Assembly (NCBI GenBank): GCA_036867785.1
Contig: CP145416.1
Location: 1,054,001 to 1,118,000 of the forward strand
From: Plasmodiophora brassicae
Taxonomy: Eukaryota
Length of the DNA stretch: 64,000 bases
Reading direction: 5' to 3'
The position numbers and the translations under genes were made by a program. This document shows positions 9,984 to 59,800 of this stretch, in pieces (position 1 is the stretch's first letter; every line of letters starts with the position of its first letter). Below the pieces are notes generated by a model. It did not search any database. It was not told the origin of the DNA and saw only the letters and a program-made list of their open reading frames with translations.

Positions 9984-10520
9984 GACTGGCGTCACATCGG
10001 ATGCGAAATGACTGCAGACCGGCTGCAGGTTGGATGCAGGAGGACGTTTCTGCAGCCAGTCTGCATCCCCTTCAGGATGCAGATAGGCTGCAGAAACGCC
10101 ATCCGCATCCAGTCTGCATCACCCTGAAGATGCAAAATGACTGCAGACGACGTTTCTGCAGCCACGTTTCGAAATACGTTTCGGAATGGTTGATCGATAT
10201 AAGCCGGCCACATTCTACGAGTACGGATGCATGCAAACGGATGCAAGTAGCGCTGCAGGCGGATGCAGGTAGCGCTGAAGGCGGATGCAGATAGGGCTGC
10301 AGGCGAATGCAGGTAGCGCTGCAGGCGGATGCAGATAGGGCTGCAGGCGAATGCAGGTAGCGCTGCAGATGAATGCAGGTGGTGATGCAGACGGATATTG
10401 CAGGTGGCGATGCAGACGGATGCAGATGGCGATGCAGGCGGATGCAGGTTGTGATGCAGGCGGATGCAGGTTGTGATGCAAAAATGACCGGTCATTTTTG
10501 CATCCGATGTGACGCCAGTG
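9984..10520. mobile_element. Non-autonomous TIR element (MITE-like, CACTG-type end) filled with GATGCAG microrepeats
   Basis: Inverted ends actggcgtcacatcggatgc (from 9985) and gcatccgatgtgacgccagt (to 10519); 3-bp flanking duplication (tgt, or gtg in the alternative register); interior of tandem atgcag/ctgcag units. Confidence 0.75.
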
Positions 10521-10747: not shown

Positions 10748-11831
10748 TCAGACGCGACATCTTCTGGCGGCCCGTGAGTACGCGACATGTACATACCTGA
10801 TAGAGATGAACTTCTCGTCGCACATCGGACATATTACATGCAGAAGCTGAGCCTGGCTGGCCTCTCCCTGCCTGCATGTCAGCTCAACTCCGATAGGCGC
10901 TTGCGCTTGCGCTCTTGCCATCACATGCGTGCCATGCCCTCTTCTAAAGGCATCGAGAGATGCTCGCAGATCTGGTTCGCGAGAACATGCGGCAACCAGC
11001 TCCTGATGTTCCTGTTCTATGGCATCAATATCGTTCCGGGTCCAGCGAACCAGTAGACGGTCAGTGTGCCGGCGAACAACAACACAAAACTGCCTCGGAG
11101 GCAAGATAACAAGTTCTTGCGGAGTGACAGGAGGACGTGGTCAGCGCTGGCGACATTATTCTCGTTGCGTTCTGCAACAATGCTCGAGATACCGGACAGA
11201 GACGACAAGTTGGACCGTGTTGTCGACAACACTGGCGAAGGTCCCTGAACCCATCTCGTCAATGCGGTCATGAACAAACGAACCCATGTCCAGAATACAG
11301 TTCTCGACACGTTGGCGATTGACGCCGAACCAGTGGCATTCCGACAGCAACCACGTCTCGTCGAGTTCGTCAACCTGTTCCATGTTCAACAGCTCACGCC
11401 CTTGGACCTGGTTCAACAATCTGGAGCAAAGGTCGCCAAGCGCCTGACGCTGCATGCTGACGGTCAGTTCGGGACTTTGGATCGTCCTGAAAGTAACCCT
11501 GCAAGTTGCGGCCAATTCGTGTACAACCATCATCATAACCCACCACTCGGGAGGTGGCTTTCACTCGCGTTGTGGGTTTGCGCTTCGCGTCGACCTTCTC
11601 CTCCCTGCCGAGGTGGACGCAGAAGAGGCATTCCACCCCTATGACAACATTCGTGTGTCGCGGGTGGAACTGGGTGGGGCGAACGGCATAATCAACCGGG
11701 TGAAAGGCCTGGAAATCCGTTGGACGCGCTCCCGACGGCATGACAACCACGAAAACTACCCCAACGTGACCTCGCTTATTTACGGACTGACCGCCAGCTT
11801 GATTACGGCGCGCCACGGACTTTGGGGTCAA
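10748..11831 (-). pseudogene. Degenerate transposase relic resembling oomycete-type hAT-related proteins
   Basis: Frameshifted segments VECLFCVHLGREEKVDAKRKPTTRVK, FRTIQSPELTVSMQRQAL and DAIEQEHQELVAACSREPDLRASLD resemble repetitive transposase-like proteins of oomycetes (recognised from memory). Confidence 0.5.
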
Positions 11832-12559
11832 AATCGTACTCCCTCCGTTTCACAAAAAGACCGTGATTCTGGGTTTTGCGCTGTTTCAAAAAAAAGACCA
11901 TGATTGTGGTTCACCGTTCATGGCTTGTCAGCGCCCGCCCAGGCTAGAAATGAATGGCGCCGAGAGGCTATCATAGTAATGGCTGATCGCTGTATGCATT
12001 ACCGAGGCGGAGTGTTGTCATGAACTCTCATAGTCATTCTTGAGTGGACTTCTGCGCGAATTCAGTGACTGCGTCTCGTTCGACGTCGGCGACCCTTTTC
12101 CGCCCAGCACGCCCTCTTTTCAGTGACGGGACCATCGTCATAGGCCTTCCATTGGACAGATTTTCGAGTGCGCGTTTCCACATGACACTGATCGTCTCCG
12201 ATCGCACACCAAACTTCCGATGGCGCCGTAGATGAGTGTTCCAGGAAGTGCTGGGTGCCTCTGCATGGTCATCAGGTACTCAAATACCATCCGTTGTTGG
12301 TCATCAATGAGATTGGGCTTTCTTCTCAACGTCGCATCTGCGTGGCAACCACCGAGGTCAGTGTGTGCATCTGCTCTAGGGACGGAGAGAATCGTTTTCC
12401 GGGGCTGGCTTGTCACGATCAGGCAAGCTGATGCAACGAACGCTTTGACGGACTGGCGAAGTCCCGTCGCGGGGTTCTCGGTTTATTCCGGACAGTCCTC
12501 ACAGAAAAATCCTCTTCTAGCGGTAAGCCTCAGACGGATCCGGGGTAGGAGGCGGACAG

Positions 12560-12990
12560 ACGGACGGACGGTTCGACACGGCGAGCAGACGGTGGACAAA
12601 CGGGTTCAACACGGGCGGCAGACGAATGGACAAACGGATGAGCTGCAGACGGACGGACAACAGATGAGCGGCAGGCGGACGGACAAACAGACGGGCTGGC
12701 AGACGGGCGGCAGACGGACGAGCAACGGATGAGCGGCAGGCGGACGGACAAACAGACGGGCTGGCAGACGGGCGGGCAGACGGACGAGCGGGCAGGTGGC
12801 GCGCGCCTCGGCGACGACGAACGAACAGTCTTGGTCCGGACCGGAATCAGAACGGCGGCGTTCTGAAGGAGCCACCGGATAGACACGGAGGCCAGACGTA
12901 TGGACGGACGGACGAACGGGTACAACACGCGGCGAGCAGACGAGATGCCGAGGCGAGATCGGCACGGACGGACGGACGGGCGGGTAGAGA
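12560..12990. repeat. Low-complexity gacg/ggac repeats including a near-perfect duplication of about 65 bp inside the TRIM-like element
   Basis: gatgagcggcaggcggacggacaaacagacgggctggcagacggg occurs twice (about 12663 and 12729). Confidence 0.8.
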
Positions 12991-13290
12991 CAGCAGGCGG
13001 TCAGAGGAACACCGGTGGCCTGAGAGGCATACAGCACGGCGGGACACGTACTCTGGGACTTGGACCAGGTACGACCGTGGCCTTGACGTTCTGCAGGAGA
13101 TGCCGAGGCGGGATCGACAGGAGGGTGGTGGGAGAGGTAGTCCGTCAAAATGTCACGATCAGGCAAGCTGATGCAACGAACGCTTTGACGGACTGGCGAA
13201 GTCCGTCGCGGGGTTCTCGGTTTATTCCGGACTTATAGATCTGTTAGTTATTTTGGCGTTATATAACGGGCGTTATATAACGTTATGTCA

Positions 13291-14286
13291 GAGCATCTCC
13301 ACCCGGCTAGCCATAGCCATAGCTAAAATGTCCGTTTTGCGGCAATTTTGGCGATAGCTATTTTCCCAATCCCCATCCAGTGATAGCCATAGTTATTTTA
13401 CTGTGCCAGCATTTCGTGCACATTGCACTTGTCGTCGGATGTAATCCTCGATTCCGTTCAATGACAGCACTGGCATCGTTCGAATAGGCTTCTGCGGCGA
13501 ATCTCCAGTTTCTCGAGCTAGTCTGTCGACACCACACGAGCAAGAAGACGCAGAAACCCGTATCTGGTGGGTCCAGACCCTGTCGCAGACCCAATGCTGA
13601 ACGAAACTCTGAATACGGTACGGAACGAAACATTCGCGAATAATTTGCTGCAGGTGCGACGTACAACGAACATCTCTGTTCAGGCGGCGCTTCCGTAGAA
13701 ACCTTTGTTCGCGAGATCATGGGCGGGTTCCTAGGACAAGATCCATGGTTTCAGAAAAGAACCACTCATTCACCGGCGGGCTTCCAGGTATAACTCTGCA
13801 GAAAGTTGTCGCAGCCATGCGAATCATCGCTGTAGACCGGACCGCCAACTAGGCCACGAGAGCAGCTGCTCTCGTGGCCTAGTTGGGCGGTCCGGTAAAC
13901 ATCGCGTACGGGTGTGCTGACGCTTGTAGCTAATACGTTCGTTTGATTTCTGCCCGTTTCTGACACCAGGATCATGGGAAATGTCAACATAGGCACGCGC
14001 CAATGACACGCCCTCCTTTCCGGCCCGCTCCGAGCCTCTACGACCTTTCTTCGCCTCATATCGCCCATGGTTCCCTCGATCAACAGGAACCACGAGGCCG
14101 TCCCCACGATCTCCCAGTCAGACAAAATGTGCGCAACTCCGTGGCTAGAGATTTGCTTGCCTAGCTATTTCGCGCCGAAATGGCGAGGCAAGTCAAAAAA
14201 ATATAGCGATAGCTAGCCCGGGTGGGGCTGTTTTCTAGCTAAAATTTGACTATAGCTAGGGAAATAGCTACGGGTTGGGGATGCTC
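13291..14286. mobile_element. PIF/Harbinger (Tourist-like) non-autonomous element
   Basis: TIR gagcatctccacccg / cgggttggggatgctc; 3-bp TSD TCA at 13288-13290 and 14287-14289; subterminal tagcta motifs. Confidence 0.85.
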
Positions 14287-14530
14287 TCACAGAGGCGTTA
14301 TATAACGCGTTATATTCCATTTATAACGAATAACAGTGTACCGGTCATGTTTCACACCCATCCTGATTCTACGACCACTTCCTCGGTACCAGAGTCGCTG
14401 TAGATCACGTGGTCGTCAATTTCGTTTGGATGCACTACGCGGTCGACCTCGCGATCACAGGCATCTACAAATTCGAAGTCGTCGACAGGATCAATCACGT
14501 CGTCATCTTCGCATCCACCGGCAGCAGATC

Positions 14531-17500
14531 TGTGCTAACGCCGCCGCTGCCCACTACGGGGGCGGTCGGTCGCAAGAGTCGGCGCCTGGTGATATAACGA
14601 ACTGATGTATTTGGACAGGATCGTCACAGCAAGGGCCGCTGCGGGGTCGAGTACGGTCATGATCATGTGACCGGGTGGCAGCAGCATCTGAGCAGCATCA
14701 TCTGAGTACTGGTACTCTGGATGAACACTCCCCGTGTTAGAAATCTGCTAACAGTCGTGAGCAGAGCGGGTCTCCTTCGGCTTGTCGTTCGAGGAAGGCC
14801 CTGACGATATCAGGAACATCGGCCGCCATGACCGAGTAAGGTTCCCATGAATTGTCGGTGGCATCGAATCCGATCCAGTTGATCAGTAGTTCAGTGTCAC
14901 CTGACGTAGAGTTGACTCGAATGTCCTCGACTGCGTTGACTTGGTAAGCCACGCCGGTGAGCGCGATGTTGTGCTTCAGGGAAGAGGTGACATTCAAGTG
15001 CGCATCTGCATAGAACATTAAGCGCTGGGCGTGTACATCTGAGATACGATCAGTCAAGAGATCTCGAACTCGATACACCCAGTCGTTGCTGGTGTCGATA
15101 ATCTGGGCAGGTCCAGTCCAGTTGTACTCGGACTTGGAGTGCTTGCCATGGTTGGCCACGAGAACATAGTCGCCCGTCGTGAAGTTGATCTCGCGAACAT
15201 TGCGTCGGCGACGCCGGGCGCGTTGCTTGAGATCACGTAGATGGGTGCGTGTACGTGCCACTGCTTTGTGCATGTCCTCGAGAGAATCGATAAGTTCCGT
15301 CGTCATTTCCTTGAGACGGTCAGGGGTCAACGGTACGTCGATAACCGCGTCGATGCGTTTGTTGAAGATAATCGAGATAGGTGTCGAGGGTGGCAAACCC
15401 GTAAACATCGTGACAGGCGCGTAGCCCACACTTGATCGAACAGTGTGATTTACCGTCATGTTGATCAGCGGAAGGACATACGGCCAATCCTGGAATGGAA
15501 GATTTAGCTCGGAGAGGAGGGACTTCAGCAGAAAGAGAAGCCGCTTGTTGACAACCTCAACCGTGCCGTTCGCCCAAGGTGTGTAGGCAGTTGTGAAATG
15601 ATGGTTGCAGTGTAACCGGCTATTAAGCTCGGCGATAACCGCGTTTTTGAAGTGTGTGCCGCGGTCAGAGACATGTTGGAAAACAATGCCGAAACGTTTG
15701 AACCAATCCAGAAGAGATTCGGCGACAACGCTGTGATCCGCGAATTGACAAGGAATTAACTCGACGAATGCCGTGGCGTCGTCCTTCAGAACCAGAACAT
15801 AACGAAGTTGATGAGAATCGCCTGGACGAGGTTTGGATAAGAACAGAAAGTCATAGTGGATGACCTTATTGGGCTTGTCCGCATGCATAGCCGTGCCAAA
15901 AGGTCGGGGAATCATCGAATCTTTGTTGCGTAGGCAGTGTAAGCATTTGTCCACAAATGCACGAACAAAGGAATCCAGATCAGGCCACCAGAAGAGTTGT
16001 GCGATGCTCGAAATAGTCGATGCAGCAGGTTGATGACCAGACAGTCCCATATGTGAAATCACTGCGATGCGTAGCTGCAGTGCATGTGATGGTACCCAGA
16101 GTTGATTGTCTGGAGTACGCCAGCCAGATTCCGGGCTAAGGTGGAGAGACATGTCCCCTTCGAGTTGGAGAATATCGGAAACGGCAGATAGGTCGTGTTG
16201 GCGAATGTAGTCGGTCTGAGCGTTACTAATCTCGTCGACAGACGGCCAGATAAACTCATCGGTCATCTTGTAATCGTCGAAGTCAAGATTAATTGCCATA
16301 TGACGAATAGAACGGAACGATGGAGGGGAAAATGAGGAGAGTGGTTGCAGGGCGACGCCCCACCGCGTGGCGAGGTCGGCCCAAACGTTGTCCTCCCCAG
16401 CAATGTGCTCAATGTGAAAATCTAGGTCGATAATCTGAAGTCGCCAGCGCTCCAAGCGATCGCCGGTCGTCCGACTAATTCGTGCAACCGAGGCTGGGTT
16501 CAGAATGAAAACCAAATTACGGTGGTCCGTGAAGATTCGAAGTGCCAACTTTGACATAGATATGAAGTGTCTGAGGCGATAGCAGCCTTCGATGATGGCG
16601 TAGGCCTCCTTCTCAATGGTCGCCCACTTCAATTGAGAACCACGGAATGTCCCCGAGATGAACGACAAAGGTTCGTGGTGTTGCTCACCGTACGGAAGAT
16701 CAATATCTTCCGGAGGGATCTGCGACAGGACAACAGACCAGAAACGGTCACTCGCATCCGGAAAGAGACACATGATCCATTCGTCCTTGGGGTGCGCCAG
16801 CGTCATGGCCTCCGATAGACGATGCTTCAGAGAATTGAAACTGGTGAGATGGTCAGTGGTCCAGCCGATGTCGGCTAAACGAACTCGACGTAGGTGTGAT
16901 TTCTTCAGACTGCTGACAGAACGAGAAGCGGACAGAAGTAGATCCTGTAGCGGATGAACATGTGCCGCGAATTGAGGGATAACAGAACGGACCCAATTGA
17001 GGCCCGAGAGGAACTGTTGGAGATCAGCAGCCGTGATAGGAGTTGATAGATCGTGCAAGGCGTTGAGATACGAGCGATCGAACGACACTCCATCAGCGGA
17101 TATAACGCGACCGCACCATGTCACTGAAGTGAGATATAACTGGCAGCGATCAGGGTTGAGTTTAACTCCAAACTCGTCGAAAGCGTTGAGAAGAGATTCG
17201 AGTGTGTCCATGTAGGCTCCGAATCCAGATACGTAGCCGAGGATATCGTCGATCCAGAGTAGGGCGCAGATATATAGAAGTTTCCCCAACACCTGTTGCA
17301 TTCCCGCCTGGAACGCAAACACGCAATCAGCGATTCCCTGGATGATGCGCCTGGGTGTAAACGTGGCGATGTGCGTCATGAACGAGCAGGCCTCCTGCGA
17401 ATCAGGGTGCAACGGAAATTGCCAATAGCCTTTAAAGGCATCGAACAGCATGAAGATGGTCGCGGAACGTAGGTAGGTCAGGATGATGTCGATGTGAGGC

Positions 17501-19866
17501 ATCGGCCATGCAATGCGTTCGGTCTGTTTGTTGACGGCTTCATTGATGTCGACGGTCAGCCGATGGCCGCGAACCTCCGTGTCCTTCTTGTCGACGACCA
17601 GACACGGCGACGCGTACCTGCTGTGCGGATTGCGGTACACAAAATCGTTTTCCGCCAAGGTTCCTACGTGATCATCCATGAATTTTTGATGTTCGAGGGT
17701 ATACCTTCGTGTTCGGCAACGAACAGGACGAGCATCTGCTTTGAAGTGTAGTTTCAGTGGACTTACTTTCGCAGGTGGATCACGGCCAAGCTTCGTTCGC
17801 CATATGTCTTTGTGTCGATTGACAGTTGTGCGTAGACGCGGGACTTGATCGTTAGGGAAACCGGAGTCAGTTGCACGTTGTATCATCCGGTCTATTGCCC
17901 TGTCCACGTCTGTATCGGAGTGTTCTCCGATTTCGACATCATAGTCGTCACCCGGATCATTGGTGTCCAATTGGGGCTCATGATCGCGAGTTGTTCCACT
18001 TACCTCCGGGTGTCTTACCGCTCTCATCGTGATCCCTTGACCACCTGGGGCGTGACGTTCCGGGGTCGGATCCGCTTCGATGATGATAGGACCATTTGCC
18101 TCGATTAACATCTCCTTCAGTTGTGTAGCTGGATTGATACCCAACGCGTCCAGTTCCGGGGCTCCTAAAAGGACAATGTCATCAGATAGGTCTTCGCGAC
18201 ATACGTTGATTTCCCGCCCGCGTAGATGTGCAGGTTTGCCATGCGAAGGTGGGACAATGGTGATGTCCACGATCGCTGTGGCGACAATTGTTGTCGTAGC
18301 CCCGATCGTTGCAAGTTTCGCCTCCGTTGGATGGTCGAACACTTTGACTGGGACATGCTGGATGGCTTGAATCCGTAGCAGTTGCGATTGCGAAATGACG
18401 GTCTTCGTCGCACCACTATCGGCTTCGAATGGAAGGTCGAGCGAGTTCTGGAAGCGAAGTCTCATAGGGGACGGTGTTGACGGCGACGGCGGGCCCATGC
18501 GCTTTGCCGTGTCTGCGTTGCCCTTACTCTCCTCCTTCTCTTTGCGCTCTTTCTGGAACTTTTCAATGGCAGCTTTGCGTTCTCCTTGAGTTGCCTTCGG
18601 GCACACTTGGACCCAGTGCTGCTCCTTGCAGATTAGGCAACCTGCCTTTGGAGGATCCTTACCTTCGAAACGTTTTCGGATGTGCTCGGGGATGTCCCTC
18701 GATTCGTCTTTCGTTTGCGATGTGGACGATTGAGCTGTCTTCAGTCCGATCGGATTTGTCGGATGCTTGCCGCCATTCCTATTCGGAGCAACAACGTCCT
18801 TACCTTTCTTACCTGCAGGTGGGGACATGGTCTGCGCTGGAGACTTCTTCTTCTCAGCTTGCAGCCGGAAGTGTTTGTCCTGCTCTTTGGCAAGACGGTC
18901 GACGAGGTCGAAGAATTTGAGCTCGTCCTTCTCAGCGTCCCTGCACCCTCCGAACTCGATCGCGCGTTCGACTAGAACCGCAAGGTCAGTGGGACGGATA
19001 CCTCCGCGTAATACCTTGATCTTGCGCTTGGTTCCTTTCGTTCCTTTGGCGTATGTGTCTTGTAGCCCATAGTCGTCGATTAGCTCATCGAACTTGGCGA
19101 AGAAAGACGTGACACGTTCCTCAATACTCTTGATTGACAGGTTCATGACCACTGTCTTCGTGAGAAGCGCCTTGATGTCTGTCGAACTCTCGACATCAGC
19201 CTCCCTGCGTTGGACTGACCTCAAGTAGCTCATGATGTCGCCATCCGTGATCGTGCTGGCGGGTTGACGTAGGCGATATTTCGACATCCCTCTGAGGACG
19301 TCCTCGGTAATGCATGACTTCACCGTTGGCGGATGAATATCCTCCTTGTAGATCAGTCGGCGCTCGTTAACGATCTCGACGTGTTTCCTATATTTCTTGA
19401 GGAAATCGTTAATTCCGTCCTTGGCCGTAAGGCTCAGGGTACGTAGGATGGGCGGTTTCAAAGGCATAAAGATCGGGCTCTTACCGTGCAGGTTTGTTGA
19501 CTGAAGCCCTCGATCGATTTCGTCATCTGTCGACGATTCATGCTCCTTGGCCTCGGCGTCGGAGTTGGTCCTGGCGTCGTCCTCCATCTGTAGACGAACG
19601 GGCGCTCTGCGGCCACCTCCTGCCATTAAGTGAGTTCGTTTGCTTGGGGCTCTTTGCGCAAGAAGCTTCTGTGCTAACGCCGCCGCTGCCCACTACGGGG
19701 GCGGTCGGTCGCAAGAGTCGGCGCCTGGTGATATAACGAACTGATGTATTTGGACAGGATCGTCACAGCAAGGGCCGCTGCGGGGTCGAGTACGGTCATG
19801 ATCATGTGACCGGGTGGCAGCAGCATCTGAGCAGCATCATCTGAGTACTGGTACTCTGGATGAACA
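14531..19866 (-). mobile_element. Full-length Ty3/Gypsy chromodomain-bearing LTR retrotransposon
   Basis: 197-bp LTRs at 14531-14727 and 19670-19866 (TG..CA), identical by eye; 5-bp TSD agatc; single intact ORF. Confidence 0.97.
14737..19626 (-). CDS. Gypsy gag-pol polyprotein (Gag with zinc knuckle, PR, RT, RNase H, IN, chromodomain)
   Basis: CLICKEQHWVQVC knuckle; ADSGA protease; FDAFKGYWQ and LLWIDD in RT; DAS...EKEAYAI...TDHRNL RNase H; HHCC plus SDRGTHF...NGTVE integrase; C-terminal LLINWIGFDATDNSWEP chromodomain. Confidence 0.97.
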   Translation of the reverse strand: MAGGGRRAPVRLQMEDDARTNSDAEAKEHESSTDDEIDRGLQSTNLHGKSPIFMPLKPPILRTLSLTAKDGINDFLKKYRKHVEIVNERRLIYKEDIHPPTVKSCITEDVLRGMSKYRLRQPASTITDGDIMSYLRSVQRREADVESSTDIKALLTKTVVMNLSIKSIEERVTSFFAKFDELIDDYGLQDTYAKGTKGTKRKIKVLRGGIRPTDLAVLVERAIEFGGCRDAEKDELKFFDLVDRLAKEQDKHFRLQAEKKKSPAQTMSPPAGKKGKDVVAPNRNGGKHPTNPIGLKTAQSSTSQTKDESRDIPEHIRKRFEGKDPPKAGCLICKEQHWVQVCPKATQGERKAAIEKFQKERKEKEESKGNADTAKRMGPPSPSTPSPMRLRFQNSLDLPFEADSGATKTVISQSQLLRIQAIQHVPVKVFDHPTEAKLATIGATTTIVATAIVDITIVPPSHGKPAHLRGREINVCREDLSDDIVLLGAPELDALGINPATQLKEMLIEANGPIIIEADPTPERHAPGGQGITMRAVRHPEVSGTTRDHEPQLDTNDPGDDYDVEIGEHSDTDVDRAIDRMIQRATDSGFPNDQVPRLRTTVNRHKDIWRTKLGRDPPAKVSPLKLHFKADARPVRCRTRRYTLEHQKFMDDHVGTLAENDFVYRNPHSRYASPCLVVDKKDTEVRGHRLTVDINEAVNKQTERIAWPMPHIDIILTYLRSATIFMLFDAFKGYWQFPLHPDSQEACSFMTHIATFTPRRIIQGIADCVFAFQAGMQQVLGKLLYICALLWIDDILGYVSGFGAYMDTLESLLNAFDEFGVKLNPDRCQLYLTSVTWCGRVISADGVSFDRSYLNALHDLSTPITAADLQQFLSGLNWVRSVIPQFAAHVHPLQDLLLSASRSVSSLKKSHLRRVRLADIGWTTDHLTSFNSLKHRLSEAMTLAHPKDEWIMCLFPDASDRFWSVVLSQIPPEDIDLPYGEQHHEPLSFISGTFRGSQLKWATIEKEAYAIIEGCYRLRHFISMSKLALRIFTDHRNLVFILNPASVARISRTTGDRLERWRLQIIDLDFHIEHIAGEDNVWADLATRWGVALQPLSSFSPPSFRSIRHMAINLDFDDYKMTDEFIWPSVDEISNAQTDYIRQHDLSAVSDILQLEGDMSLHLSPESGWRTPDNQLWVPSHALQLRIAVISHMGLSGHQPAASTISSIAQLFWWPDLDSFVRAFVDKCLHCLRNKDSMIPRPFGTAMHADKPNKVIHYDFLFLSKPRPGDSHQLRYVLVLKDDATAFVELIPCQFADHSVVAESLLDWFKRFGIVFQHVSDRGTHFKNAVIAELNSRLHCNHHFTTAYTPWANGTVEVVNKRLLFLLKSLLSELNLPFQDWPYVLPLINMTVNHTVRSSVGYAPVTMFTGLPPSTPISIIFNKRIDAVIDVPLTPDRLKEMTTELIDSLEDMHKAVARTRTHLRDLKQRARRRRRNVREINFTTGDYVLVANHGKHSKSEYNWTGPAQIIDTSNDWVYRVRDLLTDRISDVHAQRLMFYADAHLNVTSSLKHNIALTGVAYQVNAVEDIRVNSTSGDTELLINWIGFDATDNSWEPYSVMAADVPDIVRAFLERQAEGDPLCSRLLADF

Positions 19867-20544
19867 AGATCCCACAGAGATTCTGTCCAGGAGTGGAAAC
19901 TGATGAGGTGCTTGAGGAGTCCGTCTATCGGGCGTGCGTCCGGGACCTTTCGCTTGAGTTGGGACGAATTGAAACACACTGCAGTCTGGCGTTCAATATT
20001 CGCGTCTCCAAGTCTGCTTCGAGATGTCAATGCGAGTCCGCCGGAATTCCACGGCCTGTCCGCGCAGTCCGGGCTGTCCGGGGCGGTCTCCAAGCGTCTC
20101 CAAAAAGGGCGTTATATAACCGTTATATAACCGTTATATAACGTTACATAACGTTATATAACGCCCCCCCCCCCCCCCGCCAAGCGTTATATAACAGATC
20201 TATATTCCGGACAGTCCTCACATGGCTGTCATGAAGATCATGACCATTGGTGCTCCGCTATTGTTCGCCCATCGCAGCTACCAGTGGCCGTTCTTTGCCA
20301 AACATGAGAAAGTGACGCAATTTGGGCCCAAATTTTGGACCACGCAGAGCACCTTCAAAATTTAGAACTGGGCGCCTGTATTGCTCTTCTCAAAGTCTTA
20401 CAGAGCATATGCTTCAATACCGTAAATATCTAAGAATGGCCCTAATCTTTCGATGTTTCACAAATCACGGTCTTTTTGTGAAACGGAGGGAGTATATAAA
20501 GAGGCCTGCGGGCTGCGGCCTGCCATACTCTGTTGCTGTTGGAT

Positions 20545-30888: not shown

Positions 30889-33800
30889 GAGTGTTGCGAA
30901 AAAAGTTCGTACGAACTTACGAACTTCGGTACAAAAAAAATGACCTTTACGAACTTCGGTACAAAAAATGACCTTTACGAACTTCGGTACAAAAAAAATG
31001 ACCTTTACGAACTTCGGCATAAAAAATATACCTTTATGAACTTCGGTGTATAAAACCTTGGCGAACACTGACGTACTTAAGGTATGTAGTTTGGCGGGCT
31101 TCGGGAGGGTGCCTACAATGAACCACATGCAATCGTACCGTCAATGCCAGCGACGGAATTGTGCCCGTCTCGGCGCAGACAGATAACGGACGGATTCGTT
31201 CGGCGAAAAGAACAGCTTTGAAAGATTAACCGCGTAGCGCAAACGTATTCACAGCACTATAAGGTCTGTATTGAACAGGCCGAAACCGCAGGAAACATCC
31301 GACAAGACACGATCACTTACGTTCGTTCAACAGGCTGTTTCTTGTTCGCCATTAACGGCGCGCTGGCGGGATCGAAGGGAGGACAGGGGGTTCGTGTTTC
31401 GCGCCGATCGCGCTCCTCATGCCTGGACAGTCATAGGTCCATCAACTGTCACCCACAATGTCATTCCGAGGTACCCAGTCCCGGCCAGCTGGGTGCGCAA
31501 AATATCGTCTGCTTCCAGCAATGTCGTCAGCTCTACCTTCTGAGCAGCTGTCAGCCCCGTCGTCAGGCATTCGTCCGCCAAATGGTACGACAGCTGCTTA
31601 TTCCATTGACGCAGCTCGTTTCGGGTTACAATAACCAACCGGCGCTGGTCCCGCTCTATGGCGTTCCCGCAGGTTTGGCAAAGCGGCTTAGGGCCTCTGA
31701 CCGAAACCTGTTGAACAGACATCCCCAGCGGATAACGTTTGCGCCTCTGTTGACCACGTTGCTCGCTTCTCTGATCGCTGGTCCCAGGTGACCGCCCCTG
31801 ATCACTGATCAGACATGGTGGGGAAAACTGACGGCAACGTTTCCGAAGGTGTAGGCGGATCATTTCGACTGTCGGGGGGCACAACGCGGGTAGCAGGACG
31901 GGGGGTTTGCTCTGAACTCGTATCCGCATTTCGAGCCGGTCGATCAGTCTTAAGATACCATAAGCGCCCGAGCACGTGTCCATTCAGCGTTCTACTATCC
32001 GCCTTGCGCACACAGGGACTCATCATGCCGTCGTAATACACAAATTCCCCTCTCAGGAGGACGAGCGATGCGAAGTGGTTTCGGCGACAATTGCGCACGA
32101 CCATGGCGGCAAGGTCATATTGCCATGCTCCGAAGGTCAGTGTCACCGGTTGTGGAGTATTCCACGCGGCGCTGCGTTGTGGTAAGTCGGAGTGAAGAAT
32201 AATTTCTACCAGTGGCGGATAGTGCTGGATGACGTAAGATTGCAGCGACAAAGACCCTGAGCAGGCAGCAACGTGAGATTCCTGCGGATCGACACAGGTC
32301 ATGTCGATTGCGCTGCATGTCAGGAACCCATTTTGGGAATCGAAATCCCTGCCGAGGTATGCATCAACCATCGCCTGGGTTACAGCCGAAGAGCTCAGCT
32401 GCATGATGTTCCGGGAATCAAAGTCCAGTAGAGCGCACTCCCGAGTCCTTAGTGCAACTCGGTTGTGGCACGAAGAATTCGAACACAGTAGCCGATCCGC
32501 GATAACCATCCTGAACAAGTCTGGAACAACATTGGAGAAATTGTCTCCAAAGTTGTTCCACATGTCGTGGTGGCCGGTTGACGGATAGCCTAGGCACCGC
32601 GTTGCCCACAGGAATCGGGCTTCCTCATGAGAGCCTTGCCCAATAAGGGTAACTGCTTCCAGCAATTGGGGGTGGCTTGCAGGTATATGTAGACCCCAGT
32701 ATTTCTATGAAAATATCGGTATCCATCGACGGTCAGCGAGGCGCAGTCGCAGCACGAGTGAAAACGTACATGTAAGATGAACACCGTCATTAGGCCTGTG
32801 TCCACCGCGCAGGTGTTGACTGCGTCAAAGGCTCTGGACATGAAACATCAACTGCCGTTCGCTTCTGTGTTAACTGCCAACTGCTTACCCGTAACGGAAT
32901 CCCCAAGGAAGACTGTGTCGTGACAACGCGTCATGATGCACAGGAGGCGGATCATCCAATGCCTCAACAGGCGACATGACCTTTTCTGCTGGAGGAGAAC
33001 GAGGGCCTTTAGGCACTATCGTCGGCAGCAGCAGATCTGCACCTTCGTCGCGCCTAGACGGAATCGGACTTGATGGCGGCACAGTCTGATCGGGTTGATA
33101 CCAAACGCGGCACACTTTGGAGTGGCGGAACTTCTCCTTTTCGGGCCGCGTCTTAAGCCACACTAGTTTTGTTTTCGACATACCATCATAGAACAAGCAG
33201 GCACCCCCAATGTAGATAATGGACGTGAAATGTCCCCCCGAACCGAATATGACTGCTGCTAACCGGAATGTCGTGCCGTTCAACGTGATGGTACAGGATG
33301 GCTTAGCTATGCAAGCGCGAGGCACGTACTCGAATTCAAGTATCAAAGGTGGCCCAATCACGAACTTCCAGCGGGAGAGCGTGCGCACCCCCGAACACAT
33401 GTATGCGCCCCCCTGGTTATCGTCCAGCACGCGAAATGCACTATCAGGCTTCGAAAGCCTAAATGCTTCGTCCACACTCTGCGTGCAGCGCGTGACCCTG
33501 TCGCCAATCAATGAATCCACCATAGATTGTTGAACAGTCATGGAAGAATCGTCGACGTCAAGGTCCTCTGGAATTACTTCGAAACCTGGTCGGCGCATCT
33601 CAACGCGATTCGATCGCTCTGGACAGTGCTCGGATGTGCAGTCAGACTTTTGCACAACGGTAAAAAGAACAAATTCGGGACGAAGCGATGCACAATATCT
33701 TCCACAGTGCCAAACAGGTCCACAATATTGGACTTCGGTATCGTCGGCACGTGATTGCCTGCGAGCCACAGCAGACGCGCCTCATTATTCCTCTCCTGTG

Positions 33801-36391
33801 AAATAAGATCCATGACCTGACCGAGCACAGGACTGTCGTTGTCACCTGACGGCAACCGAAGCTTCCCGTACTCGAAGAGCAGGTAGAGAGTCATGAGGCC
33901 CGTGTCCATCGGGCACGTATTGGTAAACCGGACACCGTTCGAGGTGAACCCCCATGGGATACCGAATGTTTTCCAATCCACTAATGATCCAAGTTTGGGT
34001 ATCGTATTCGTGCTCCCAGGTGGGCGCCCTCGTAGTTTCTTGATGGCGTTGACCGATGCAGATCGATGAACCGATTCCTTTTGACGTTCGCTCCGCTTTC
34101 GAAGAAGGTCTTTCGTTGTATCCGGGGGCCTGCCATCAGACCGAGTCTTCTTTGTAGATCTAGATCTACTAGGATTGTACCGCTCCTGAATGCCAAGACA
34201 AGCATTGGTGTATGCCTGCGCGATTTGTTTGACGAACAAGTATATGGGGGGAATGACGGTGACGATGGATTGTTTTCCGTTGCAGCAGCGTTTTAGACTG
34301 CCGCCAACGCTTTCCTGCGCGTTCGTGTTATTTGGCAACAGCGAGATGTCCCCTGTTGCCAGAGCCGGAAAGATGTGTCGACCTCTCAGCTCGTGGAGAT
34401 GCCAATCGAGCCATCGCCGTGCTTTCGGAAATCGCTGATACAGAAACTGTAGCCGGTTCGCGAAATCAATCGGGTCGACTACAATCGTGAGCGACAAAAC
34501 TGTTTCGTAAAATAATGCCTTGTCATCAGGGTGGATGACACCAGCGTTTCGAGATACACGGCTTAGGGTCCGCTTAAAATGCACGTCGCAATAGCGGTAG
34601 AAATGATCGAGCGCCAGAACGGCATTATCATCCAAATGACAGTGCGCCCTGAGAGCTGCCTCAAACCCAGCACGTTCAGCGTCTGAAAAGTCGCTGGTGT
34701 TGCCCGGGAATTGGTGTTCCCATGCGTCCACATCTACCGGCATTTCCATTGTGCTGAAGAGAGTCAGGAAGTGCCGGCGGTAATGTGCAGCACTCTTGCC
34801 AGTCAGGATCGATATCAATAACGGGACGTGACGCGAAAGCATTGGACAGTATGCAGTCGTCATCGTTACGTTTGCGTCAGGAAGTATGGGATCGACAAGG
34901 ATGCCTTCGATGGAATCGGACTGCATCGGAGATTCGCAAGCCCTTGCCCTCTCCTGCATGAACGCTGTCTGCAGACAAAGCGCATCGGAACCGATACATA
35001 CGAACAACTTTTCACCGATTTCCTTTTCAAACGCTAGTACTTCAGACAAGGATGAAGTGGGCGGCTTAATGAGTTTGGTCTTGATGTACCTGAGGCGGTC
35101 AATGTTCGCCAGGCTGTGATGAATCTCACCTGATGCTGGTCGAGTCATTGTACCCATCTGTAGCTGCTTGGGAGTGAGTTCGGGCGCCGTATGAATGATA
35201 TGAGCGAGTTCATCCATTGCTTGGGCACTTGGTCGTATGGCTTCCGGTTTGCGATGACGATGGTATCCCTGATGAATGAACGTAATGATATGGGGGTTGT
35301 CGCTAGTTTTCTCGATGATTAAAATTGCCCGACATGCAATATGAGAAACTGGACGATTGTGCACAGAGCATGTCGCAGGACAAGGCGCAGGACGACAGTG
35401 TTTTGAGCGCCGCTTGGGCAGTTGGGGACGAACGGTGAACCCGCATCCGTCCACTGGGCAGACAAACACCCCCAGACATGACTTCTTCACTCGTACAGAG
35501 GAGGTACTGAACCGCGCCATGGACCAAGATGTGTTCAGGTATGAAACCTTCGATTCGTCAGTGGGTACAGATATGGTGTACGAAATGTTTCCATCCGGCC
35601 ACTCTGGATTGATCTCGGCTGGCGTAGCAACCTCGTGCACGGGATGCTGTCGCAGATGATGGGTTCGCCCAGCAGGAAGGGGCAAGTGGGGGTCTCGCGA
35701 ATCCTGCTCGGCCGCTGAAGTATGGACGTCGTCGTTCGCGCTGGTACCCCGCAATGTATGTAGAGGAACGGCCAAGTGCCGGTCCCGCGAGTCGTGTTCG
35801 GCCGCCAAAGTATGGCCGTCGTCAGCTGGCGTCAAATCACGATCGTGTGTCCTGGCAGTACCGTTATGCCGCTCAGCTACACCAGCCACTGCACGTCGCG
35901 AGTCTGACAGCAAGTGGCTTCGCAGAAAAGAATCCACCCGAGCGTTCCACTCACCGTTGACGTCATTTGCCAAGAGCAGATCCAAAGCCAGACGGCATAC
36001 AAGAAACTTCGTAAATTCGTCTGTCTTCGACGCCATCAGCCCTTGCTGCCGACAGGCACGCCTGCAAGAATAGATCGAGACCAGCTCCTTAGTACGGTGG
36101 GACGATTCCATGCATAGAGAAGCTGGGTTATGTACTCTGTATGCTCAATCTCCTGTAGATTACATGATTTTTGTTAGCCTGCGTAGAAGCAGTGTTCGCG
36201 TGTACATGCCGTTGTAAACTCAACTGTTTTACACCGAAGTTCATAAAGGTATATTTTTTATGCCGAAGTTCGTAAAGGTCATTTTTTTGTACCGAAGTTC
36301 GTAAAGGTCATTTTTTTGTACCGAAGTTCGTAAAGGTCATTTTTTTTGTACCGAAGTTCGTAAGTTCGTACGAACTTTTTTCCATACACCC
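30889..36391 (-). mobile_element. Mutator-like (MULE) DNA transposon with long TIRs
   Basis: 9-bp TSD caataaaaa (30880-30888 and 36392-36400); TIRs of about 165 bp built from about 29-bp tandem units acctttacgaacttcggtacaaaaaaatg and a terminal palindrome aagttcgtacgaactt. Confidence 0.92.
31417..36111 (-). CDS. MULE transposase: GCM domain + DDE core + two USP/papain-like protease domains + PARP-type zinc finger (spliced; one frame break near 33665)
   Basis: EWPDG..SWSM..KKSCLGVFVC..RP..IACR..GYHRHRKPE (GCM); SDS..SDFSDAE..YCDVHF..NTNAQES (D, D, CxxH, E); two copies of NTCxxDTGL...HFxS..YDG; CQTC..YHLADEC. Confidence 0.75.
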
Positions 36392-55255: not shown

Positions 55256-56669
55256 TTACCATTTCGTAAGAAGGGCGTCTGGCTTGGGTACTGCTCGGAA
55301 GGATGTATGTGCAAAGTCGCGCGCTGCTGTGGATCCTGGGCCATCCCCTACCCATTCTTCGTACCAGCGCTGTGCACCGAGGCTCGGATCGCGAATTTCA
55401 ACGCCATTTCGGTACGACGCACGAACAGCATCGAGGGTGACACCTCGAATTTGTCCACCGCCGTTAAGGCACCCGGATGGGCACGCCATCACTTCAACGT
55501 AGTGATACGGGCAAGATCCGGAGCGAATCTTTCGAACAAGGTTCTGGATGTTCCTGAACCCGTATGCTCTTGCGAATCGCAGAACGGGTCGTCCGTCAAC
55601 AACCAGGCTAGTCTCCTGGAAGTCGGCATTGCGACCGACTTGCTTAAATTGCAGAGGCGACCCGTCCAGTTCAACATTGAACAACTCACGAGCCGCATGC
55701 TTGAACACGTTGTCAAGATATCCTCCAGATGACCCACTGTCTTCTGCAGCCGTTATTACAGGCGACGCGTCATCGTCCTCGGGCACGACCTTGCCGAGGT
55801 CTTCGACTCTTTCTTCAATGAGGCCGGCAACCTCCAGCGTTGTCAGGACTAGGTCGACATCGCTTTGGAACTCGCTTCTTGACGCTTCCAGCTTCTTGTC
55901 GGCACAAGGCATTACGGTGACGTGATACACATTCGTGTCAGGATCGGACTGGAATCGCTTCACGAAAGCTCCCATGATCTGTTGTGGACTACGCACGGTA
56001 CTCATGTAAGGAAGAATGAGCTCCTGCGTCTTCTCCGCATAGCAGACCCATCCAGGGCACTCCGATGTCAGCACAGGCAGGTTACCAGTTGGACTGCCGG
56101 AGGCTTTGGCTGCTTGGAACCGCTTGACGAACTCGTGGCGAGCCTCAGTGAGGGCGAGGTCCGCTGCGAACGATGAGTCAAAGACGGAAGCAGCGCCAAG
56201 CTCGCGCTTGAAGAAAGTGCTTAGGCGTTTGGCGGCCGAAGGAGTCGACAAGCCGAACCGCGCAGCAAGCGAGGCGCGAGAGTGCGGTGAGATGGAAACA
56301 ATGAGCGTCTTCGAGCCGGCGTTAACGACACGAAGGAGTTCAGCGACGGATTGGGCCTCGACCAGGACTGTCTCAGCTGAAGTGATACAGCCGCTACATG
56401 CCAGACAATCGTTAAGCGTTATCTTGGCCGTCGACTGACGAGGCACGATCTGGCCGAAGCGATTCTCGACAGCAATCTGGACGGCTGGTCCATCCGTTTC
56501 GAACTGAACCACGACGTTGAGTCAAATTGCTATCATTGAACACAACGCGCACGTTTACCTTCAACCCAGACTGACTGTCCTGAGGCTTGATGGGCAGAAC
56601 GCATTCCACCGCTGGTGAAATGAAATCGTCAACGTCAGCGATACGGAGCGTGGCGCTGAAATCCGCCAT
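55256..56669 (-). CDS. NAR1: Cytosolic Fe-S assembly factor NAR1/NARFL (hydrogenase-like), 2 exons
   Basis: DDFISPAVEC; ITLNDCLACSGCITSAE; SECPGW; MPCADKKLEA; AYGFRNIQ; EVMACPSGCLNGGGQ; terminal W. Confidence 0.96.
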
Positions 56670-56833: not shown

Positions 56834-59800
56834 TCAGGATCGGAAGAGGGAATCCAGGATTGCGCTCGCAGTTCGCGGGCTCCTCTTGTGCAGGCGGTTT
56901 TGCTGAGGGACCGGTACCGTGTACTCCTTGTACATGTCGAACAGGGTGACGGTAATACCAGCTAGCAATGGCCTACAGTCAAACGTTACATTAATACAAA
57001 TAACCGACAATTGTCGTATTACCCAGCAACGATTCCCTCTGGCCCAAACACGTACACGCCCATGACAACGCTTAGCCCGACAAAGTAGCTGTTGCCAGGT
57101 ATATACGACCGTATGATAGTGTCAACATAGATATCAGCAAACAGATGGGATACGACAATGATCAAACTGCGGACGTGATACGAGTTGAAGGCCACCCCTA
57201 TGGAGGCTGGAACCCAAATGATCTGGCGGGGCATCGTCAAAGCACGAACAGCGCACGAAATATTAAGATCACTCTACCCAAGTGCCCATGACCGGCATGA
57301 TTGACAGGATGCCGGTCAAGCAGGAGAGAATTGATTCAAGCAGTTCGAAGCGCTTAGGAAAGTGAAAGTCCCCAGTGTATCTAACGTGGGGGAAGCCGAC
57401 GTCCCCATGACGTCGCACACACAGTGGCACGGTCGCCACTGTGCACCAGTTGCGTCACGTCGTCGTGACTCATGGGTCGGCCACTGTCGCTAGCCTTCCC
57501 ATTATGAATCAGCCGCCCTAAGGCGCCAGCGACAGGTCCACCCGACCCATCCCGGCCGCCCTCTTCATGACCTCCACAGGTTCACGAGTGGTCGGCTTGG
57601 TGAGCGCGTCCGCCGGATTGTTCTTTGACGCCACGCGCTCGAACCGGAGCAGTCCCTCCTGGACGCACTCTCGCACATAGTGCCATTTCACCCGAATGTG
57701 CTTGTTCCGGTCCGTGACCCCGAGCGTCTTCACCATCTGCTCGGCAGCCGTGTTGTCCTCCAGCACAATCGACGGGTCCGTCAGAGTGAACCCGATGTCG
57801 GTGAGGAGCATCCGGACCCACACTACTTCACGCGCCAGCTCGCTGGCCGCCACGTACTCCGCGTGCGCTGAGGAGGTCGCCACCAGGCTTTGCTGCTTCG
57901 ATCGCCAGCTCACAGCTGCGTCCATCAGCGTGACGATGAATCCCGTGACCGACTTGGATGTGTCCGGGTCCATCGCAAAGTCCGAGTCGACCGCCGCCCG
58001 GGGCTCCGACTCCTTCACGTTGTCTTTGTTCAGTGCCATCGGGTCGAATTCAGTCGCCGGTGTCTTGCTCTTCGCGTAGATGATGCCGACATCCGTGTTG
58101 TTCTGGACATATCGCAGCACGTGGAGCATCGCCTCGAAATGCTCCCGACCCGGGTTGTTCAGGTGACGCGACAGCTGCGACACCGCGTGCGTGATTGTCG
58201 GCATCGTGCCGATCGACAGATGCGCCAGGCAACCAACGCCCTCGCGGTACCGCTCATGCTGGTGCGGAACACCGTCGGTTCGCCGGGGCATAATCTGCCC
58301 GACAGGCAGAGCCGTGGCCGGCGCGCGCAAGCGGCGCCCGGCGGCTGCCTCGTCGATGTCGGTCTGGAACCGCGCGACCACCTCCTTGGCGTACTGCTGT
58401 TGGTCGATCGTGATGCGCGTTGCCTCCTGCTTGATGCGCATCCCCAGGATCCATCTCGCGATGCCGAGGTCCTTCATCTTGAACTTCTTGCCCAACGCTG
58501 CCTTGACGTACTCGATGACGTCGGGATCCGTGCCAAACATCATAAAGTCGTCCACGAACACCCCGAGGATCGTGATCTGTCTGCGGCCGTCCTTCGTCGT
58601 GAACATAACGAACAGGCACGGGTCGCCGGTCACCCTTGTGAAGCCGATTTCGAACAGAACTGATACGAGCTTATCGTACCAGAGCTTCGGCGCCTCGACC
58701 AGGCCGTACAGCGCCTTCAGGAGCTTCATCACCTTGCCGCGTCCTCCGACCACGAAGTTCTTCGGCTGTTCACAGTAGATCGGGTACGGCAGGTCTCCAT
58801 TCAGGAACGCCGTCTTAACGTCCAGCTGGTGGATGACCACGCCCAGCATGGCCGCCAGCGCCACCATGATGCGCAACGTCGCATACCGGAGCGTCGGCGA
58901 GTACGTCTCCTTCTGGCCCTTGAACTTGTCGCAGCATCCCTTGACGCAGAAGCGGGCCTTGTGGCGCGTGATCTCCCCGTCCTCGTCGCGCTTCGTCGTG
59001 TGCACGAACATTGTTGGCAGCACTTGAGCGTCGGTCGGGCGGTCCACGATCTCATACGTGCCCGCTTCCTTCAGCGACTGCATCTCCTCGACCTGCGCCG
59101 CCAGGTACTTGTCCCGGTCAGGCCCGTTCTCGGCCTCGTACTCAGTGAGGAACGCGTTGCCAGCGTCCTCCTCCTCCAGGTAGCTGTCCTCGTTCTCGAG
59201 CGCCTCGTCCTGGTTGACCTGGTCCTCGTTGTCCGGGTCGTCGTTGGCCTCGTTGTCGTGGTCGACAGCATCTGCTGCTGCCGCCTGGTCGACGTTGTCG
59301 GCAGCCCCTGCTGCCGCCCTGGCGCTGGCCGCCCTCTGGCGCCGCGCTTCGCCGTCGTAGTCCACGTCGGCAAACCGAGCGGGCGCTCCTCTGATGCGCG
59401 TCGACCGCCTCGGTTCAGGGACGCCTTGAGCAGCAGGTCCTCGATCCCCGCCGCCCTGAGCTGCTTGCTCATCGCGTCCGTCATGCCGGTCTTCACCGGC
59501 ACCTGCGAGTTCCCTGGCACGGTCGTCCCCGCCGCCGCCTCGCTGAATGGCGCGGCCATCCTGGCCGCCGCCCTGTTGTTGACCGACGCGACCTTCTCGA
59601 TCGCCGTCGTCTTGTCGTGCGACGCGATCGTCCCGACCGCCGTCGTCTTCTTGCCCATGACGATCGTCTTGACCGCCATCGCCGCCTCCTTGCAGCTGGG
59701 CTTGCGCCGTCTCTTGGCGCTTGCGGGTCTCCTCTCCGCGGGAGCCGCTGTCATCCTTGAACGGGAATTCGTTGGGGAAGAAGACCACGTCCGAAGACTC

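Follow-up and report, generated by a model that had tools for sequence, protein, structure and literature searches.

A miniature non-coding LTR retroelement of Plasmodiophora brassicae with a putative Tf1-type self-primer binding site

Self-primed and miniature LTR elements

Tf1 and Tf2 of Schizosaccharomyces pombe, Tj1, Maggy, Skippy, Cft-1, Boty and the Tcn1 clade are LTR elements without a primer binding site (PBS) of the tRNA type. In this Tf1/sushi group, an 11-nt PBS beside the 5' LTR is complementary to the part of the element's own LTR at which its RNA should begin, and a U5 stem-loop lies within the resulting fold-back. The 5' end of the RNA and its cleavage by RNase H have been established for Tf1, for which Lin and Levin have reportedly described the U5-IR structure in detail. 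The self-priming of Tj1 was inferred from the same kind of complementarity (PMC4600332), and a list of fungal elements with sequence-inferred self-priming appears in another article (PMC6934838). In plants, according to a survey, self-priming was predicted from sequence complementarity for the Tcn1 (chromovirus) and TAR (Ty1/copia) lineages, and for 12% of the elements surveyed (PMC6317226).

A different set of LTR elements has been described under the names TRIM and SMART from plants, ants, bivalves and cestodes. These are shorter than 1 kb, multicopy and dependent on helpers, and they possess short terminal direct repeats, a 5-bp TSD and a non-coding interior between PBS and purine tract (PMC6934838 and PMC10886601). 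As defined in the former source, TRIMs have LTRs of 100-250 bp and a PBS that is complementary to a tRNA (PMC6934838). Helenus, Ajax and Cassandra are likewise small, non-autonomous LTR elements, with a PBS type that mirrors that of the helper; their LTRs contain pol III promoters that are tRNA-like or 5S-like, and no LTR-to-PBS complementarity was found in them (PMC10886601). The same text describes priming from an internal tRNA segment for copia, Ty5 and the fungal Helenus TRIMs (PMC10886601).

The mini element considered here lies in a 64-kb stretch of Plasmodiophora brassicae DNA, referred to as the window. It resembles the Tf1/sushi group in lacking a tRNA-type PBS, in having an 11-nt candidate PBS beside the 5' LTR that is complementary to the expected RNA start in its own LTR, and in having a U5 stem-loop, in this case a predicted one, within the fold-back. 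However, Tf1/sushi elements are autonomous chromoviruses of at least 5 kb with LTRs of several hundred bp, whereas the mini element is rhizarian, gene-less and 832 bp long, with 92-nt LTRs. Because it is gene-less, with neither Gag-Pol nor a chromodomain integrase, it cannot belong to the Tf1/sushi chromoviruses, and while cleavage and RNA 5' end are established for Tf1, they are putative in the mini element. Complementarity is also the sole basis on which the plant TAR and Tcn1 elements have been proposed to self-prime, but those elements are autonomous.

When compared with TRIMs, the mini element falls below the 1000-bp limit (~832 bp), is without coding capacity, has a 5-bp TSD and probably depends on a helper, while its LTRs, at 92 and 93 nt, are just under the range of the definition, and its candidate PBS matches its own LTR and lacks the TGG that would pair with a tRNA 3' end. 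Relative to Helenus, Ajax and Cassandra the situation is reversed, as LTR-to-PBS complementarity is present and searches with ARAGORN and Rfam revealed neither tRNA-like nor 5S-like sequence in the mini element region; ARAGORN found no tRNA gene within the 64-kb window.

No description of a self-primed TRIM was found in the open-access literature, and the bivalve TRIM paper, where it cites self-primers, does so as an analogy (PMC6934838). Nor did the open-access literature yield a report of self-priming reverse transcription in Rhizaria, or anything on small LTR elements of P. brassicae. A preprint in which the term 'self-priming' occurs applies it to siRNA production, which is a different sense (10.1101/2022.10.17.512609). 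The available part of a P. brassicae pangenome preprint gives a transposable element content of 11-14%, with Gypsy and Copia dominant, contains no detail on elements of this kind, and reports that transposon-rich regions are hotspots of structural variation (10.64898/2026.10.14.759018). Self-priming and TRIMs are each already known; their combination was not found described in open-access texts, and it is one to be expected wherever self-priming helpers exist.

Anatomy, surroundings and abundance of the mini element

The mini element is a real LTR retroelement on the minus strand, spanning 20222 to 12411 and measuring ~832 bp once a nested insertion has been subtracted (Table 1). It is bounded by paired terminal direct repeats ending in TG..CA (TGTGA...GTGACA), 92 nt long at the 5' end and 93 nt at the 3' end, which are a single indel apart: 12411-12493 and 13151-13232 are 98.8% identical over 83 columns, with an extra G in the 3' copy that is absent from one contig of run X4 (place 12463). 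The first-pass annotation had taken the locus for a TRIM-like LTR element, about 830 bp in size, without coding sequence and with LTRs of 93 bp. The element and its direct repeats are indeed there, but that annotation overlooked the fact that the upstream copy is interrupted. Only 82 nt of the 5' LTR are contiguous (13232->13151), and the one complete 93-nt LTR is that at 12411-12503. The missing first 20 nt sit 7 kb off, at 20222->20203, where a blastn comparison of the element with the window matched them to the start of the 3' LTR (12484-12503) with 20/20 identity (E 3e-4).

Recognition of the split LTR also alters the flanks. With the borders of the first-pass annotation, these differ, reading CTATA on one side and AGCCA on the other, and no TSD is apparent; the TSD becomes perfect because the split 5' LTR is recognised and its 20-nt start rejoined, which places AGCCA at both 20227->20223 and 12410->12406, a length within the 4-6 bp criterion for a TSD. 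The purine tract, 9 nt long, is found 6 nt away from the 3' LTR rather than abutting it, and it has been kept among variant copies. A reading with the plus strand as sense, prompted by a purine-rich stretch before 13151 on that strand, was rejected because the complementarity described below would then be without a role and there would be no TATA-like motif.

Table 1. Features of the mini element and of the insertion within its 5' LTR (window coordinates)
Feature	Position	Strand	Basis or remark
3' TSD copy, AGCCA	12406..12410	-	3' flank begins AGCCA, same as the 5 nt that precede the LTR start (20222)
Intact 3' LTR, 93 nt, TGTGA...GTGACA, contains AGTCCGTCAAA at 12454->12444	12411..12503	-	Direct repeat
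Internal domain, 647 nt, non-coding	12504..13150	-	26/27-nt and 65-nt tandem repeats, part of ~155-nt unit; open frames only; 0 Pfam
Polypurine tract AGAAGAGGA, 6 nt upstream of 3' LTR	12510..12518	-	Other copies have AGAAGGGGA or AGAAGAGGA (variants at 12504-12513; loose end 13227)
Putative self-primer binding site TTTGACGGACT, 1 nt past 5' LTR	13139..13149	-	Complementarity to LTR
Split 5' LTR, downstream 82 nt (LTR nt 11-92)	13151..13232	-	Direct repeat with 3' LTR
U5 hairpin AUCAG-CUUGC-CUGAU, within primer-PBS helix	13158..13172	-	Predicted in minimum-energy and centroid structures
Putative primer AGTCCGTCAAA, LTR nt 49-59, proposed transcript 5' end	13184..13194	-	Complementarity
GACGGACT in U3, 8-nt alternative partner of primer (5-nt loop)	13200..13207	-	Read from sequence
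AATAAA, TATA-like motif, putative function	13221..13226	-	Ends 27 nt upstream of putative start; kept in variant LTR (loose end 13227)
Nested insertion splitting 5' LTR, 6.97 kb, TIR-type DNA element	13233..20202		Ends TAGATCTGTTA, subterminal GGCGTTATATAACG repeats; holds ~1-kb element and chromovirus
First 20 nt of split 5' LTR, TGTGAGGACTGTCCGGAATA	20203..20222	-	20/20 identity to 12484-12503
5' TSD copy, AGCCA	20223..20227	-	5' flank ends ...GACAGCCA

Tandem repeats of 26/27 nt and 65 nt make up much of the interior of the mini element. Its frames are open, though of low complexity, and no Pfam family was detected in any of the six tested (6/6); the flanking open frames were equally without a Pfam family (9/9 tested). 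A unit of ~155 nt from the interior (window 12942-13119) appears to be tandemly amplified elsewhere in the runs described below, where it is seen as back-joints 13086->12944 and as loose ends at 12942 and 13116, and this repetition explains a peak of depth at 12884-13095, the highest of the region. The unit may be a satellite that was derived from the mini element or one that was captured by it. Two weak microRNA-like Rfam matches in the region 12000-14600 fall at hairpins of nested elements and were dismissed as chance, being far under the gathering scores.

The interruption of the 5' LTR is the work of a TIR-type DNA element that inserted in U3 and later took two further insertions. On the minus strand, the 20-nt LTR start runs into TAGATCTGTTA, and the same 11 nt, inverted, stand directly before the 82-nt remainder at 13232. 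From 7 to 10 nt of LTR sequence are duplicated either side of the TIR element, the exact length of this TSD being ambiguous. The TIR element is non-autonomous and has a poly-G run near 20165-20180. One of the insertions that it holds is a ~1-kb element (13288-14286) with imperfect inverted ends of ~16 nt, which is absent from one contig each in runs X2 and X4 (joint 13287->14287). A perfect 42-nt palindrome at the center of this ~1-kb element (13845-13886) is of elevated depth in X16, X2 and X4, three of the four runs compared, and gave a weak, sub-threshold Rfam match to a microRNA precursor family (29.6 bits versus a gathering score of 124).

The second insertion is a chromovirus (14531-19866, minus strand) that is apparently intact and is separate from the mini element, with its own identical 197-nt LTRs and the TSD GATCT. 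Its Gag-Pol is encoded by a single ORF of 1629 aa with RT, RNase H, integrase and chromodomain, and only 43 nt separate LTR and ATG. The window also contains a copia-type element (57332-62457, minus strand) with identical 180-nt LTRs, the TSD ATTCT, and ORFs for gag (60787-62256) and pol (57518-60781); here the gap from LTR to gag ATG is only 21 nt. The product of an ORF at 55256-56512 has 100% identity to a protein that bears the name of P. brassicae. Two other features of the window were recorded. At 10045-10502, about ten 22-nt tandem repeats with short inverted repeats flanking them overlap a 220-aa open frame without a Pfam family, and on the minus strand at 33574-36111, an 845-aa ORF weakly resembles the GCM DNA-binding domain (33 bits against a gathering score of 25, E 6.7e-8). 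The GCM domain is otherwise typical of animals and is unexpected in a plasmodiophorid.

The mini element family is repeated. Nineteen of the 24 public runs listed hold at least half of the sampled words of 12380-13260, and these 19 represent eight studies, one of which is possibly the source of the window itself. The share was 0.20 in a soil metatranscriptome (X20) and 0.00 in runs X21-X24. Contigs were compared from four runs, namely X16, which is labelled DNA, and X2, X4 and X6, the kind of which was guessed (mostly 'RNA?'). Summed depth, which is not equivalent to copy number, amounted in X16 to 60,948-962,107 in bins 12460-13201 versus 39-553 in bins 11400-12035. The contig with the PBS had a depth of 485 in X2, 295 in X4 and 322 in X6, versus 36, 20 and 12, respectively, for the flank contig ending at 12439.

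Several variant copies were recovered as well. An internal variant with the joint 12552->12736 and 25 other letters was present in X4 and X6, X4 held a copy that passes into unrelated sequence at 13014, and majority variants were located at 12985-13078. A variant LTR start that is 5 nt shorter (loose end 13227, X4 and X6) has kept TGTGA, AATAAA and the purine tract. The ends of contigs at 12439 and 13180 had been considered as proof of many copies, an argument that was dropped because the element's own two LTRs give the same branching.

Complementarity between the LTR and the putative primer binding site

On the minus strand, TTTGACGGACT (13149->13139) starts one base beyond the end of the 5' LTR at 13151, and its exact complement, AGTCCGTCAAA, occurs within the same LTR (13194->13184), with a third site in the other LTR (12454->12444). 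The two arms, 13139-13149 and 13184-13194, are 11 nt long, 100% complementary and spaced 34 nt apart. A TGG-type tRNA PBS is absent from the first bases past the LTR, and the 25 nt that follow it show no second candidate for a PBS. The motif AATAAA (13226->13221, minus strand; LTR nt 17-22) ends 27 nt ahead of the A at 13194, a spacing that is usual for TATA boxes. On all of these points, the first-pass annotation had made corresponding claims, i.e., an exact 11-nt complementarity one base after the LTR at these coordinates, of the position and length known from Tf1, the absence of a TGG-type PBS, and an AATAAA about 27 nt upstream of the LTR motif, and each agrees with the sequence, with 11/11 nt pairing exactly. 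The only AATAAA of the element is in U3 and, because of this, R is possibly very short.

How improbable is this arrangement? The 11-mer occurs three times in the window, versus 0.05 expected (100 shuffles). Short-range inverted repeats of at least 11 nt are not rare in the window, which has 11 versus 0.75 in shuffles. An inverted repeat alone therefore means little, because such repeats are common in this transposon-rich window, and it is the placement that is improbable: by arithmetic, the chance of finding, within a 92-nt LTR, the exact complement of an 11-mer that starts 0-3 nt past it is ~8e-5. When the LTR and the 25 nt that follow it were tested for RNA duplex formation, the energy was -22.6 kcal/mol, a value equalled by one of 500 shuffles of these 25 nt.

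The same test gave ordinary results for the two larger LTR elements of the window, as 391 of 500 shuffles bound as well for the chromovirus and 182 of 500 for the copia element. The chromovirus has no complement of at least 6 nt between its own LTR and the 25 nt after it and has no TGG PBS, and the only TGG near the copia LTR overlaps the start codon; in neither of these elements does a TGG lie 5 nt or less from the LTR. In blastn comparisons, neither was similar to the mini element. Both were rejected as the autonomous self-priming partner that the first-pass annotation had postulated for the mini element, having no LTR-PBS complementarity and no sequence in common with it.

Folding predictions are consistent with a primer-PBS helix. 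A 65-nt RNA that starts at 13194 is predicted to form a helix of 12 bp (11 Watson-Crick pairs and one G-U) along with an inner hairpin, with an energy of -23.7 kcal/mol and a z of -4.64 that none of 200 shuffles equalled. The inner hairpin, of 5 bp in U5 (13172->13158), is predicted in both the minimum-energy and the centroid fold. The primer bases 13187-13194 can also pair with GACGGACT (13200-13207) to give a hairpin of 8 bp and a 5-nt loop that spans the border proposed between U3 and R, and this hairpin is interrupted in the 3' LTR by the extra G. The primer 11-mer may, by way of this second partner in U3, be part of another structure as well. When U3 is added to the RNA, the primer-PBS helix persists in the predicted fold, which still favors it over the pairing with GACGGACT.

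The contigs spanning the PBS (13019-13180 or 13179) contain no differences in the three runs listed (X2, X4 and X6), and neither 11-mer varies among the variants listed in contigs of the four runs. This lack of variation is neutral with respect to self-priming, as the PBS would be recopied from the primer in each cycle and young copies are expected to be perfectly complementary. A metagenome scan with the 20-nt LTR end gave no matches. Four metagenome loci (L001-L004) that fit the primer-gap-PBS pattern all proved to be unrelated hairpins of 26-40% GC and are silent on the mini element family.

Proposed priming, rival explanations and significance

Taken with moderate confidence, the preferred reading of this locus is that of a repeated, non-autonomous, TRIM-like LTR retrotransposon that is probably self-primed in the manner of Tf1. 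Transcription would start at LTR nt 49 (13194), the A of AGTCCGTCAAA, which is ~27 nt past the TATA-like AATAAA. The first 11 nt of the RNA would fold back across a 34-nt U5 segment, which has a predicted hairpin of its own, and would pair with TTTGACGGACT one base beyond the LTR. The RNase H of a helper element would cut behind nt 11, and the freed 3' end would prime minus-strand synthesis across U5 and R, with Gag, protease, RT/RNase H and integrase supplied by an autonomous element. At a later time, a DNA transposon entered U3 of this copy, and the 1-kb element and the chromovirus then entered the transposon. All of the priming steps are inferred from sequence, including where transcription starts, the RNase H cut, the need for a helper and the extent of R.

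Other explanations of the complementarity have to be weighed against Tf1-type self-priming. A TRIM-like element might be primed by a fragment of a host tRNA, either the anticodon stem-loop or a half-tRNA, the complement in the LTR being a coincidence or a decoy. Precedents exist, as one study documents that non-autonomous LTR elements and the copia elements that partner them prime from the tRNA anticodon loop (PMC10886601), and another does so for plant copia lineages (PMC6317226). Priming by the 3' CCA end of a tRNA is impossible, however, because a primer complementary to the PBS would end in AAA, and, judged by the rules for U33 and purine 37, a single register would seem to fit an anticodon loop, at the cost of an unusual base 32. 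When the low chance that all 11 nt pair exactly with the element's own LTR (~8e-5) is considered in addition, priming by a tRNA fragment is unlikely. A somewhat less improbable, though still doubtful, alternative is that the inverted repeat is a structural RNA of the leader with a role in packaging, dimerisation or positioning of RT, comparable to the retroviral U5-leader stem, or is a motif acting at the DNA level, and that the primer is something else. The pairing of the 11-mer with the 8-nt segment of U3 is in keeping with this idea, since it means that several helices are possible. The same is true of the two other LTR elements of the window. These lack both self-complementarity and a TGG 5 nt or less from the LTR, which suggests that priming of an unusual type may be frequent in this genome; both features are likewise missing from the Skipper elements of dictyostelids (PMC5006619). 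Against it, the complement sits exactly at the position of a PBS, 1 nt past U5, and has the length known from Tf1, the distance to the TATA-like motif would make the 11-mer the 5' end of the RNA, and the first 25 nt offer no alternative PBS candidate.

That the locus was never mobile, and represents a local duplication containing a chance hairpin, could be argued from the first-pass coordinates, on which CTATA and AGCCA provide no TSD. With the split LTR recognised, the TSD is perfect, and the TG..CA ends, the purine tract, the very high depth and the variant copies with other flanks (4/4 runs compared) make a local duplication extremely improbable.

If the preferred reading of a self-primed, TRIM-like element is correct, every cis signal for self-primed reverse transcription fits within the 92 nt of an LTR and a further 12 nt. 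Self-priming would then be open to a non-autonomous element, and such an element would constitute a very small natural substrate for the recognition and cutting of a fold-back primer by RT/RNase H. A further proposal, which is speculative and has a low probability, is that the primer, the U5 hairpin and the PBS form a self-contained, tRNA-free module of 56 nt that lets differently primed helpers, for example the chromovirus and copia elements of this genome, copy a gene-less element of 832 bp. This would make it the first TRIM that primes itself, as well as the first indication of self-priming retroelements in Rhizaria. Copying by differently primed helpers is conceivable because the module needs no tRNA. 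LTR finders that demand a tRNA PBS would miss or misclassify the mini element family. Self-priming in P. brassicae, if true, would widen the range of this mechanism, which so far comprises fungi, vertebrates and some plants, to a rhizarian.
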